This document shows, in pieces, positions 18,997 to 38,162 of a stretch of 64,000 bases of DNA. Source of the DNA: Patescibacteria group bacterium (GTDB lineage: Bacteria > Patescibacteriota > Patescibacteriia > JAHIZJ01); the NCBI GenBank assembly GCA_028714495.1, contig JAQTMH010000001.1, forward strand, positions 9,721-73,720, written 5' to 3'. The first letter of the stretch is position 1; each line of letters opens with the position of its first letter. The notes under the pieces are model-generated. The model was not told where the DNA came from and made no database searches. It saw nothing but the letters and a program-made list of their open reading frames with translations. Position numbers and translations under genes: made by a program.

Positions 18997-19781
18997 GGTT
19001 TAGGTGTATTAATTGGTTTTATTTCAGTATCGATAACTTCTCGGCCCAGCCGCTGATAGGCGTTGGCTGCCCGGGAGCGCAGAGCGTAGTCCCGAATCGG
19101 CAGGCCGTGGCTGGGCGCTTCGGCTAGTTTGATATTTCGGGGAATGACTGAACGGAAAATGCGGTTGGGAAAGTATTTGTAAAGTTCTTCCATTACTTCC
19201 CGGGTCAATTTATATCTCGGATCATACATAGTCATGACCGCGCCCAGAATCTGCAAATCACTGTTTAGATTGTTTCTTACCAAATCAATCGTATTCAGAA
19301 GCTGGCCCAAGCCCTCCAGGGCAAAATATTCGCACTGGACTGGAATCAGCACCTCCCGCGAGGCGACCAGGCCATTGATCGTCAATAAGCCGAGCGAGGG
19401 CGGGCTGTCGATAATAATATAGTCATAGTCTGACAATACTTCACGAAGATTGTCTTGCAAAAGATACTCCCGGCGCGGCAAATTTACCAGTTCGACTGTC
19501 GCCCCGGCCAGAGAAATGGTCGCCGGAGCAATTTTATAGCCGTATAAATGGGTGTCGCGAACAACCTCGCTCAAGGACGTCGGGGTCAAGAGAACCTCGT
19601 AAATGCCCCGGTCTATTTCTCGGTGGTTCAGGCCTAATCCGCTGGTGGCATTGGCCTGCGGATCAATATCAATCAGCAGGACAAATTTGCCCATGGCGGC
19701 TAAAGCCGCGCCAAGGTTTATGGCCGTGGTGGTCTTCCCCACTCCGCCCTTTTGATTGACAACCGAAATTATCCTGGACAT
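18993..19781 (-). CDS. parA: chromosome partitioning ATPase ParA/Soj
   Basis: NQKGGVGKTTT, DIDPQANAT, IDSPPSLG, LAEAPSHG. Confidence 0.97.
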   Translation of the reverse strand: MSRIISVVNQKGGVGKTTTAINLGAALAAMGKFVLLIDIDPQANATSGLGLNHREIDRGIYEVLLTPTSLSEVVRDTHLYGYKIAPATISLAGATVELVNLPRREYLLQDNLREVLSDYDYIIIDSPPSLGLLTINGLVASREVLIPVQCEYFALEGLGQLLNTIDLVRNNLNSDLQILGAVMTMYDPRYKLTREVMEELYKYFPNRIFRSVIPRNIKLAEAPSHGLPIRDYALRSRAANAYQRLGREVIDTEIKPINTPKP

Positions 19782-19877
19782 TATCCCGGGTTACTGCTTA
19801 ACTAATGACCTAAGTATAAAATAAAAATGGTATTATTTCAATAGCGTTAATCAGCAATTTTTTATCAATAATATTCA

Positions 19878-19906
19878 TTGACAAAAAGCTAATTTTTCCT
19901 TACGCT
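19878..19906 (+). promoter_or_regulatory. sigma70 promoter of tRNA locus
   Basis: TTGACA-17nt-TACGCT. Confidence 0.75.
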
Positions 19907-19917
19907 TACTGCTGAAA

Positions 19918-20221
19918 GCCGGAGTGGCGGAACCCCGCACTACAACTCACTCCGTTCGTCGAGTACGGGGCAGGCTGGCAGACGTATCCCGCATCTGTGG
20001 TGGGCGAGTGGCGGAACTGGCAGACGCACAGGACTCAAAATCCTGCGAGCGCAAGCTCATGAGAGTTCGATTCTCTCCTCGCCCACCACTAGTGCGGGAT
20101 ATGCGGGACTCTAGCCCAGTACCGGAGCAGAGCGACTGGTACTGGGCAAAATCGTGCGGGGATGATCCCATGTCGATTCGACGGAGTTTATCCTGACGAA
20201 TGTCAGGAATCGGCGGCACTA
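19918..20221 (+). pseudogene. outer tRNA-Leu(CAA) remnant interrupted by four palindromic insertions
   Basis: removing inserts gives GCCGGAGTGGCGGAACTGGCAGACGTGCGGGACTCAAAATCGTGCGGGGATGATCCCATGTCGATTCGA..ATCGGCGGCACTA. Confidence 0.75.
20002..20088 (+). tRNA. tRNA-Leu (CAA)
   Basis: GGGCGAG/CTCGCCC acceptor stem, CT-CAA-AA loop, long variable arm, GTTCGA, encoded CCA. Confidence 0.97.
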
Positions 20222-20401
20222 ACTACCTGAATTTCTCTAGCGCACGGACACGTCTGATGACTTGAGATAAATTACAATTCACCTTTTAGTTAAAAGGTGA
20301 ATTGAGACCCGTCGACGGCACCAGCTGGTGGTGATTACCGTTCCTTGATAAATATTCCAATATGCGCTATTATATAAACCACGGATAATATCCGTTAACG
20401 T

Positions 20402-20477
20402 CGCGGGGTGGAGCAGTTGGCAGCTCGCAAGGCTCATAACCTTGAGGTCGCCGGTTCGAGTCCGGCCCCCGCAACCA
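20402..20477 (+). tRNA. initiator tRNA-fMet (CAT)
   Basis: CGCGGGGTGGAGCAG start, C1:A72 mismatch, CTCATAA loop, CCA. Confidence 0.95.
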
Positions 20478-20612
20478 TGAACGACTCGCTGACGCTCGCA
20501 TTCATGGCTTGCGCCAGACATAATCGACACACTGACGCTCGCATTCATGGCTTGCGCCAACAAGATTCGGCGAGTCATTCATGCCTTGAACCAAAATACA
20601 TTATTTGGTTCA
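20478..20612 (+). repeat. structured post-tRNA repeat, copy 1
   Basis: GAACGACTCGC/GCGAGTCATTC stem enclosing two identical 28-bp units (20489-20516, 20532-20559); homologous to 21060-21215. Confidence 0.85.
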
Positions 20613-20654
20613 GGGCGATTAAAGTGATGGCACGGGAGATAAGGAGTATCATAA

Positions 20655-21005
20655 GTGAAAAACTGGTTCTATGTTTATGTCCTTATCAGTCTACTGGATG
20701 GCATGTTCTATCTTGGTTATACGACGAATCTCCGACAGAGAGTTATACAACACAATAACGGACTGAATGTCTCCACCGCTAAACCTCGTCCGCTTCGTCT
20801 CATCTACTATGAAGCTCATCGATCACAAGAAGATGCATTTCGCCGGGAAAGTTATTTCAAAACAGCCAAAGGAAAGATAATGCTTCGCTATATTATCCGT
20901 TCATCTTTAAGAGAGCGACAAACTCAAATCGCAAAGCTGGGTACCGCCGATGGCGTATACCCGAGCGAAGCGAGTGGTATACGCCAGGGTAGCTCAGTTG
21001 GTTAG
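20655..21005 (+). CDS. small GIY-YIG nuclease (UPF0213/YhbQ-like)
   Basis: FYVYVL...FYLGYTTNLRQRV.QHN...LIYYE...AFRRE..FK; C-terminal tail runs into the next tRNA. Confidence 0.9.
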   Translation: MKNWFYVYVLISLLDGMFYLGYTTNLRQRVIQHNNGLNVSTAKPRPLRLIYYEAHRSQEDAFRRESYFKTAKGKIMLRYIIRSSLRERQTQIAKLGTADGVYPSEASGIRQGSSVG

Positions 21006-21059
21006 AGCGTGGGACTCATAAGCCCAAGGTCGTGGGTTCGATCCCCACCCCTGGTACCA
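20983..21059 (+). tRNA. tRNA with CAT anticodon (elongator Met or Ile2)
   Basis: GCCAGGG/CCCTGGT stem, TAGCTCAGTTGGTTAGAGC D arm, CTCATAA loop, CCA. Confidence 0.92.
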
Positions 21060-21215
21060 TAAACGACTCGCTGATGCTCGCATTTATGGCATAAGCCAGT
21101 AATACTCGACATATTGACATTCAGATTCGGAGCTTGCGCTAGCTAAGGTTCGGCGAGTCGTTTACGCCCTGAACCCGACCATGGACCATAGCGGTTCATG
21201 GGATTGGTTTAGAGC
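21060..21215 (+). repeat. structured post-tRNA repeat, copy 2
   Basis: TAAACGACTCGC/GCGAGTCGTTTA stem, diverged copy of 20478-20612. Confidence 0.8.
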
Positions 21216-21263: not shown

Positions 21264-21797
21264 ATGTTTCTCACCACTCACGCGGCAGCGGGCGTTTTAA
21301 TCAGTCAGAGGTTTGATTCGCCCCTGTTGGTTTTTTTTATTTCGATTTTTGCCCATTTTGTCATGGATTTTATCCCGCACGGCGATGAAAATCTCTATCA
21401 GGAATGGGATCCGAAAAAAAGAATGCGGGCCGCTCGGGTAAGTGTTATTGACTTCCTGATCGTCGTAATTATGATAATGGTTCTCTATCGCACCACCGAC
21501 CTGCCGCGCTTCGGGCTGGTCAGCGCTGGTTTGGCCGGATCGCTTTTACCCGACCTGGCCTCAAATTTTTTTCCCTTGCTGCATAAAAAATTCCGCGAGG
21601 TTTTCATCTTTCGTTCGCTTGGCTTCCTGAGAAAAAAGATTTTTCTGCTTCATCCGATTATGAAAAGACAGGACATTTGGCATCGTTGGTTCCACCGTTT
21701 TTTTGACCACTTTCTGGACTACCGCATTTCTCCAGTGGCGGGCATAGCGATTCAAATTATTATTATCGCGATATTTCTAATCACTGAAATTCGTTGA
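21264..21797 (+). CDS. membrane-bound metal-dependent hydrolase-like protein
   Basis: HAAAG, HFVMDFIPHGD, LPDL, H..FH motifs with TM helices. Confidence 0.7.
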   Translation: MFLTTHAAAGVLISQRFDSPLLVFFISIFAHFVMDFIPHGDENLYQEWDPKKRMRAARVSVIDFLIVVIMIMVLYRTTDLPRFGLVSAGLAGSLLPDLASNFFPLLHKKFREVFIFRSLGFLRKKIFLLHPIMKRQDIWHRWFHRFFDHFLDYRISPVAGIAIQIIIIAIFLITEIR

Positions 21798-21798
21798 T

Positions 21799-22317
21799 AT
21801 GTTTATCACGGTCCACGCCTCCTGCGGTATTTTTATCAGCCAGGCGGTTAAATCGCCTATTTTAGTTTTTTTACTGTCTTTATTTTCACATTACCTTCTG
21901 GACATTATTCCCCACGGTGATCGGGACTTAAGCGAGTGGATCGGGAAAAAGCCGGTTCGACTTTTTAAAATAGAAGCGATCGACCTGACAATACTGGCAG
22001 TCTATTTGGGAATCCTTTTCTGGCAAGGCTCCGAATCCAATATATTATTATTGGTAATTAGCATAATCGGCGCGGCTCTACCCGACATCCTGTCAGAAAT
22101 ACGCCATCAATCAATAAATAGTCTGGCGACTTTTTATCGGCAATTTCGTCTGCTTGATCGCATCAGATTAATAAAAGGATTCCTTAACTGGCAAAACCGC
22201 GTTCATGATAAACTTCATTGGCTGATTAAAACAAACATGGGATGGGTTGGGGGAATTTCGATACAAGTAATACTGGTATTGATGTTTTTCTTTCTTACTG
22301 CCAAATTTTTTAAATAA
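21799..22317 (+). CDS. membrane-bound metal-dependent hydrolase-like protein (tandem paralog)
   Basis: HASCG, HYLLDIIPHGD, LPDIL, HDKLH. Confidence 0.7.
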   Translation: MFITVHASCGIFISQAVKSPILVFLLSLFSHYLLDIIPHGDRDLSEWIGKKPVRLFKIEAIDLTILAVYLGILFWQGSESNILLLVISIIGAALPDILSEIRHQSINSLATFYRQFRLLDRIRLIKGFLNWQNRVHDKLHWLIKTNMGWVGGISIQVILVLMFFFLTAKFFK

Positions 22318-37634: not shown

Positions 37635-38162
37635 TCAGTTTATATCTGTAAAATCAATCACCGGATAGCTCATTTCTAAATCATTTATATATTCAACGCC
37701 GAATTTCTCCCTATACCAGTTATAACTTGAATATGGATACTCTCGATTCGCCTTTGCATAACCATGCTTAACCGGATTATGATGTATATAATTCAGCCTA
37801 GTAAAAAAATCTTTTTCCCCACGAATACAATTGTCCCAATAATTCCACCAGACTTTAGGGCCAGCTAGATTATCTAATCTGTTCAATTCATGCGCGCTTC
37901 CGCCATTAATAAATCTCGTCAAAGAACTTAACAATTTACCTCTTGGGAGGCTGAAAAGGATGTGGTAGTGATTCATCAATACTACCCATCCGTATAGATT
38001 AATCCCATATTTAATAATCGATTTTCGTAAACGATCTATTACAATTTCCATCTTCTGATTTGTGTTAAACAACCTTTTGCCATCAATTGTTCTTGAGGTA
38101 ACAAAATACACCCCGTCGTCAATATAGAGGTGTAATGGTATGTGGCGCTTAAATCTAGATAT
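37635..38162 (-). mobile_element. REP-associated tyrosine transposase (Y1 HUH, RAYT)
   Basis: YFVTSRT, WVVLMNHYH (HUH), WWNYWDNCIR, YIHHNPVKHG, YPYSS; frame open to an ATA behind an AAGGAG SD. Confidence 0.9.

Follow-up and report, generated by a model that had tools for sequence, protein, structure and literature searches.

Genes for tRNA broken by several short inserts at non-canonical positions are known from archaea, as multi-intron and nested-intron tRNAs. Among hairpin elements, the REP/BIME repeats with their RAYT Y1 transposases are short, imperfect and non-autonomous, with a four-base tag at the 5' foot and conserved stem mismatches (PMC3333891, PMC3733652), traits shared by the cassette reported here, and TnpA-REP needs both the tag and the imperfect stem (PMC3333891). 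The passages on tRNA in these two papers concern only genes for tRNA-modifying proteins. Ssn, a small single-domain GIY-YIG protein, has as its substrates hairpins of single-stranded DNA, which tolerate removal or lengthening of the loop (Chenal et al. 2025, PMC11893778), and its NTS/SRM sequences resemble our inserts in having stems of the TCCC..GGGA type; the main text of that paper makes no mention of tRNA and shows neither transposition nor cargo. The tDNA-integrating islands (Islander, PMC4383910) are comparable in that a tRNA gene is split and the element restores its function, and SegB of phage T4, a free-standing GIY-YIG protein that recognises a tRNA-gene motif, spreads tRNA genes (PMC2330249). 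In the literature searched, mostly the main texts of journals accessible without subscription, no description of nested or hairpin-wrapped replacement tRNAs was found.

The locus described here lies in the genome of a Patescibacteria group bacterium (GCA_028714495.1; 1.17 Mb, 6 contigs, 98.9% complete), within a stretch of 64,000 nucleotides of contig JAQTMH010000001.1, referred to below as the window, to which all plain coordinates belong. tRNA genes are commonly viewed as stable, vertically inherited and single-copy, whereas in these minimal genomes they have apparently been replaced in place again and again by a protein-free element of 117 bp. The reading that we regard as likely is that a miniature hairpin cassette has replaced tRNA genes in place repeatedly. 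parA-parB runs divergently from the Leu(CAA) locus, downstream of which stand two tRNA-Met genes; the space between these two holds a small GIY-YIG ORF (20655–21005, plus strand; PF01541, E 3e-13), which lies outside the cassette. A sigma70-type promoter that is divergent from parA occupies positions 19878–19906 of the plus strand and is composed of a −35 box TTGACA (19878–19883), a spacer of 17 nt and a −10 box TACGCT (19901–19906). The −10 box of the original prediction is at the stated place, but it matches in only 3/6 positions and was not listed by the promoter scan; the perfect −35 box and the spacer are kept in relatives, TTGACA-N17-TA spacing being found also ahead of the intact syntenic gene in G001, G003 and G006. 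An AT-rich, terminator-like 13-bp inverted repeat (20275–20304) separates the Leu locus from the tRNA-Met promoter, and the 305-nt region as a whole folds with a z-score of −6.3. Related palindromic repeats were also observed directly after the CCA of each tRNA-Met gene (20402–21170).

The cassette (19983–20099, plus strand) consists of a four-base tag (19983–19986), a left arm (19987–20001), the inner tRNA-Leu(CAA) (20002–20088, plus strand) and a right arm (20085–20099) that overlaps the ACCA end of the tRNA. The inner gene, of the GGGCGAG acceptor type and with an encoded CCA, was called intact by ARAGORN and scored 56.2 bits against Rfam RF00005, in agreement with the prediction of a complete tRNA in the loop of a palindromic insert. 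The arms pair outward over the ACCA, with 12/15 positions in Watson–Crick pairs, and so extend the inner acceptor stem as had been proposed. The cassette has a fold of −63.9 kcal/mol, which was equalled by 0/300 shuffles, and it contains no ORF, so that no mover gene is carried. Since the inner gene is the only Leu(CAA) among the 48 ARAGORN calls of this 98.9%-complete genome, and a conserved promoter stands ahead of it, we infer that it is expressed. Its score in the ungapped arm test was 5 against a threshold of 6, the shortfall being due to a two-base mismatch.

Around the cassette, a second tRNA-Leu is preserved in five pieces on the plus strand. The acceptor 5' strand and the start of the D-arm (19918–19932) carry the same letters as the start of the syntenic intact genes; the 3' part of the D loop up to A22 (19975–19982) was delimited by sequence and homologue comparison, and homologue comparison likewise identified the decayed positions 23–33, i.e., the 5' strand of the anticodon stem (20100–20110). 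Homologues and a sequence profile defined the next piece (20147–20181), which comprises the CAA anticodon, the 3' strand of the anticodon stem, the variable arm, the 5' strand of the T-stem and the T loop, while the 3' acceptor remnant ending in ACTA (20209–20221) was recognised from the syntenic site of G005. When rejoined and scored with a sequence profile of Leu genes instead of a covariance model, the outer sequence reached 39.8 bits on the profile of 75 other Leu genes (the inner gene, 74.7), whereas only 4/300 shuffles gave any match and the best of them 1.1 bits, so the expected tRNA-like character was borne out on this profile. The match spans model positions 2–72 only, the last 15 nt being eroded, which agrees with the predicted decay of the acceptor 3' strand. 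Compared with the intact syntenic gene of G001, 67/87 positions are identical, and three of the differences fall within the first 43. Even at a lowered threshold ARAGORN called no plus-strand tRNA in the outer sequence; its intron search at low threshold returned 330 calls, mostly spurious, and these were left out. We consider the outer gene dead because the 3' strand of its T-stem is missing, its anticodon stem is mismatched and its end reads ACTA.

The two genes are identical in 61/88 positions and unlike in acceptor, anticodon stem and variable arm, which upholds the view that this is not a simple tandem duplication. The 3' remnant pairs in 5/7 positions with the outer 5' strand, and it is likely to derive from an older shell of the GCCGCCG type. 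The outer gene would then probably be a patchwork, with 5' and 3' remnants coming from two shells.

Besides the cassette, three empty inserts interrupt the outer gene on the plus strand. Insert 1 (19933–19974) is a decayed tagged hairpin in the D loop with a CCCCG..CGGGG stem and a CAGG tail, for which same-site inserts exist elsewhere; it has the arm design of the cassette in the opposite orientation and holds no cargo. Insert 3 (20111–20146), supported by its fold and by same-site inserts, is a tagged hairpin that separates U33 from C34 in the anticodon loop of the outer gene. Insert 4 (20182–20208), recognised by tag recurrence and fold, is a GGAGTTTA-tagged hairpin in the T loop at the place where the T-stem 3' strand is missing. 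All four inserts that had been described are present, although two boundaries moved: the cassette, or insert 2, runs over 19983–20099 instead of 19985–20101, and insert 3 over 20111–20146 instead of 20112–20147. The new boundaries were chosen by homologue comparison, and the former ones fit the sequence alone equally well. Inserts 2, 3 and 4 each fold better than all 300 shuffles and are hairpins as claimed; insert 1 is no stabler than shuffled sequences, 91/300 of which fold as well.

The inserts had been taken as unrelated, and this has to be revised: they are tagged CCC..GGG hairpins, related in design, which other genomes carry at these same positions of their tRNA genes. Among 259 loci, 14 distinct inserts of the insert-1 type were found at the D-loop site (insert 1 counted in), 7 other loci carried inserts at the U33/34 site (2 further pattern matches being T-loop false positives), and the tag of insert 4 appeared in 7 distinct contexts. 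Within the host genome no exact second copy of any insert was detected, which gives no sign of recent spread; this uniqueness, which the original prediction had counted as adverse, does not refute the reading as an element, given that other loci have family members at matching tRNA positions. Counts of tagged hairpins in the host were 25/69 near tRNAs (4.2% of the DNA) versus 44/323 elsewhere, overlapping calls included. In three further loci (L071, L053, L032), an empty TCCCG..CGGGA hairpin exactly replaces the anticodon arm of a dead Leu gene.

The parA-linked site was compared across six genomes of the family (G001–G006). A single intact Leu(CAA) is present there in G001, G003 and G006, where it is of the uninterrupted GCCGGAG type that had been anticipated, and in G004, where it is of the GCCGCGG type. 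In G002, the site holds a relic whose inserts occupy the D-loop and anticodon-loop sites seen here but which lacks a nested cassette; an intact tandem copy lies downstream. The order previously suggested, with the cassette arriving before the other palindromes, is thus not readable from the locus. In G005, a GGGCG-type gene, identical to our inner gene in 81/87 positions, stands in other arms, and behind it three 3' ends are stacked, of which the final one agrees with the remnant at 20209–20221. From this six-genome comparison we therefore take the ancestral state to be one gene at the promoter, since overwritten more than once. A distinct strain in sequencing run X3 agrees with the locus in right arm, right junction and insert 3 but has three substitutions at 20103–20107 and other sequence after 20156, including another variable arm and flank; accordingly, the dead shell differs between strains. 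A second X3 contig carries the same right arm within another Leu shell.

Outside the host, the same 15-nt arm pair, mismatches included, was found around Leu(TAG) in G002, G003 and G005 and around Leu(CAG) in G112, so that it spans CAA, TAG and CAG genes across different genera. The right-arm pattern occurred in 14/401 genomes of the class, host included (reversed control, 1), the two-arm pattern in 2/301 genomes of the phylum (the host and one of another class), and the strict left-arm pattern, in a GTDB scan, at 4 loci, two of them in Patescibacteria and two being non-tRNA chance matches. Viral contigs gave 0 matches to the left-arm pattern and 31 to the right-arm pattern, none of these at a tRNA end. 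Taken over 172 loci from the genome, metagenome and viral scans, the pattern lay at a tRNA end in 38, of which 26 are distinct and all are Leu, with the anticodons CAA, TAA, TAG, CAG and GAG.

The 25 cases other than our own were read by eye. The anticodon of the cassette equals that of its shell in 9/9 readable cases; in 7/25 the cassette replaces the anticodon arm of the shell, as an empty hairpin does in 2, and in 6/25 the shell is unreadable, L212 being ambiguous. Three loci (L207, L108, L218) show a clean insertion after A22 with no duplication, and L113 has a 4-nt repeat. An empty site is available as well, G006 having an intact Leu(TAG) at the place that a nest of three layers occupies in G003, a genome of the same genus. 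Together with the homologous cassettes and the intact syntenic GCCGGAG-type genes, it favours the proposal that a palindromic element brought a replacement into the resident gene and that this gene decayed afterwards. Relic motifs stand on both flanks of 16/36 armed, 2/8 intermediate and 3/26 unarmed Leu genes, and within the 26 armed members arm position −10/82 is paired in 26/26 (14 T-A, 12 C-G), positions 5–11 form 130 pairs versus 100.6 when permuted (0/5000 as high), and mismatches or wobbles are kept at three positions (−5, −6 and −8), all these samples (70 Leu genes; 26 members) being enriched by the search patterns and containing kin that are not independent. The four-base tag ahead of the left arm is TTTA in 7/26 and variable in the others, and a D-loop end precedes it in 15; the junctions are not uniform across loci. 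A tree of 31 tRNAs left 13/28 inner branches open and set apart only the resident GCC-type genes (99/97), with no donor.

Compared with the systems introduced above, the cassette acts like a tDNA-integrating island and is built like a REP element, and it departs in defining traits from REP/RAYT, Ssn/SRM, islands, target-duplicating MITEs and introns. In contrast to REP/RAYT elements, its tags are GTAG or CGTC in 0/26 members, its insertion site is A^C (sense) or G^T (antisense) and not the C^T described for that system, only the D-loop insert site being readable as C^T, and the family sits inside tRNA genes at fixed positions, in one form with a whole tRNA, whereas the Y1 genes here are 3 kb or more from tRNAs. 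The SRM consensus of Ssn was unmatched in 19900–20240 on either strand. Islands differ in that the cassette measures 117 bp, has no integrase, brings a whole gene and not a fragment, is bounded by inverted arms and not by att direct repeats, and leaves the dead gene on both sides. SegB, as described in its source (PMC2330249), makes its cut in double-stranded DNA at a T-loop motif and propagates its own gene together with the flanks, whereas the cassette is ORF-less and enters the D-arm. Class II MITEs share the presence of arms, but L207, L108 and L218 have no target-site duplication. Unlike the archaeal tRNAs with introns, the present locus has a bacterial host, a decayed outer gene and neither a splicing endonuclease nor RtcB that we could find. 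Two further identities were considered and dropped, that of a spliced tRNA intron, given that the exons are not intact and the splicing machinery was not found, and that of a retron or element made by reverse transcription, given that no PF00078 match exists in the genome.

These comparisons bear on several other explanations of the nested locus. The spare tRNA could have arisen by local duplication or recombination, its arms by fold-back template switching that extended the acceptor stem, and the empty hairpins could be separate parasites. Such an origin, which we hold to be improbable, would suit the many host tRNAs with private AT-rich arms and no family motif, the locus L066, where the interior of the inner gene is identical to that of its shell, and the orphan armed genes that exist without a shell; however, template switching is expected to yield perfect, locus-specific arms, whereas here one arm pair, mismatched at the same points, is found around CAA, TAG and CAG genes of more than one genus, and the inner and outer genes differ in three parts of the molecule. 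It is quite improbable that the arms owe their retention chiefly to a role in RNA, as a processing or stabilising stem of the precursor in a natively armed type of Leu gene, with homologous recombination between cells moving the genes and nesting as a by-product. Compensatory arm pairs, G-U wobbles on the sense strand and the presence of RNase III and an RNase P RNA match in the genome speak for that role, but empty hairpins with the same arms and tags occupy fixed sites without any tRNA, genes of the same acceptor type are found unarmed (L033, L034, L036), and recombination alone is not expected to insert precisely after A22. We judge it very improbable that the inserts are scars of integrase-driven islands or prophages that targeted and restored tRNA genes, even though integration into such genes is a classic pattern (PMC4383910): what an island leaves behind is a displaced fragment as a direct repeat, whereas a whole gene between inverted arms is seen here, a search for tyrosine recombinases found a single one (C1:92597), about 63 kb off, and no viral contig has the cassette at a tRNA.

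The possibility that the inserts are introns and that the outer tRNA is spliced to a working molecule, as in multi-intron archaeal tRNAs, would agree with their placement in loops at fixed positions, one of them at 33/34, and with the tRNA-like rejoined sequence. Group I introns are far larger than these inserts, which are much too short to be such; the stems of the outer gene are mismatched or missing, its acceptor pairs in only 5/7 positions and ends in ACTA, a tRNA intron endonuclease and RtcB were not found in the host genome, and the X3 strain has other sequence from 20157 on, so that we regard splicing as hardly credible. An assembly chimera of two alleles is likewise extremely unlikely. 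The locus is not covered from end to end by any one public contig, the break falling inside the inner tRNA, where words are common to other organisms, and the source sample may have been that of runs X1 and X2, which are then not independent of the assembly; but public contigs match 19000–20035 and 20059–20448 with zero differences over both junctions, the X3 strain shares the right junction and insert 3, and the same architecture recurs in unrelated genomes. Set against these alternatives, we prefer the reading in which the cassette is a non-autonomous mobile element that probably broke an older tRNA-Leu(CAA) and replaced it in the same step.

The replacement of the resident gene by the cassette could proceed as follows. 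The cassette would be the tRNA-loaded form of a REP-like family, with a 5' four-base tag and an imperfect CCCG..CGGG stem, that a host-encoded nuclease cuts and joins in trans as single-stranded DNA; the tag and stem design of REP elements and the action of Ssn on single-stranded hairpins suggest that it would move in this form with the tRNA as the loop. Empty insertions into single-copy tRNA genes would be lethal without a spare, and for this reason cassettes loaded with the same anticodon would be the ones to survive; a survivor would take over the resident promoter, leaving the shell free to gather empty hairpins. The agreement of anticodons may stem from guidance by homology, from selection against the loss of a single-copy gene or from a later change of anticodon. 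The inner tRNA could be freed by ordinary 3' trimming, or by an RNase III cut of the arm stem followed by RNase P. A route through RNA, like splicing, is argued against by the failure to find a reverse transcriptase, a splicing endonuclease or RtcB in the host. In its widest form, the idea would be that of a minimal self-rescuing element family: a tagged hairpin of ~120 bp, with a whole tRNA as sole cargo and as homology guide to the gene of the same anticodon. Tiny GIY-YIG nucleases linked to tRNAs would insert it in single-stranded form at cloverleaf loops, and throughout the Patescibacteria essential tRNA genes would be turned over in place continuously and exchanged horizontally. We offer this widest form as a tentative and rather doubtful one.

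If the cassette is mobile, the mover is perhaps one of the small tRNA-linked GIY-YIG proteins, a candidate that we would place a little short of an even chance. All five small GIY-YIG ORFs of the host lie near a tRNA (5/5; 0, 4, 27, 42 and 437 nt). The one at 20655–21005 encodes 116 aa, its end runs into the second tRNA-Met gene, and its closest solved chains are UPF0213 proteins and, weakly, an SLX1 homologue. Among relatives, a GIY-YIG gene within ~2.6 kb was found at 0/26 armed versus 2/20 unarmed loci, a comparison that took long-flank loci only (26 of 36 armed, 20 of 26 unarmed). A Y1 HUH transposase would be the other mover to consider, although we think it unlikely. Six Y1 matches were present in the host, one of them above the NCBIfam RAYT cut-off. 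The Y1 genes at C3:47219 and C4:109306 are each adjoined by one hairpin of the CCCGCC type, in addition to other repeats, none with the cassette arms. The hairpin at C3:47219 has the same arms as those around tRNA-Ala(CGC) and tRNA-Val(CAC), and the one at C4:109306 stands after CAGA inside another repeat, the same context as at the tRNA site. In the window, the Y1 ORF above the NF047646 cut-off (REP-associated tyrosine transposase) is located at 37635–38111 on the minus strand, with repeated palindromes upstream.

With this locus, a cassette family becomes definable through its shared arms and its insertion site is mapped; an empty site is available as control, and the anticodons of cassette and shell agree. 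Should the reading be true, REP-like repeats would gain a cargo-bearing, gene-replacing form, the uncharacterised small GIY-YIG proteins beside tRNA genes would get a testable substrate, and the tRNA sequences of Patescibacteria and their flanks would not follow the species tree. A system that inserts single-stranded DNA with a free loop would moreover merit attention as a tool.

The acceptor stem is extended by the flanks in 19/48 host tRNAs, against 17/2256 swapped pairs, and the Ile(GAT), Phe, Val(GAC) and Pro(TGG) genes of the host are nested likewise. Cassettes themselves get killed, since the Leu(CAG) locus holds the dead 5' half of a GGGCG-type cassette gene. Nested or relic-flanked loci, involving Pro, Phe, Ile, Val, Leu(TAA), Leu(CAG) and Thr genes, are situated at C1:207400–208500, 221400–222000 and 257300–257600, C4:85400–85720 and C5:16000–16400. 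Elsewhere in the window, there are two tandem paralogous membrane-protein ORFs (21264–22317; 177 and 172 aa) that bear a TxHA motif at the N-terminus and matched nothing in Pfam. The ARAGORN calls for the host genome included no tRNA-Asn, which we presume may hide an intron, and no Arg(ACG), with Arg(GCG) and Ile(TAT) present, as well as three His(GTG) calls, two of them in tandem on C3.
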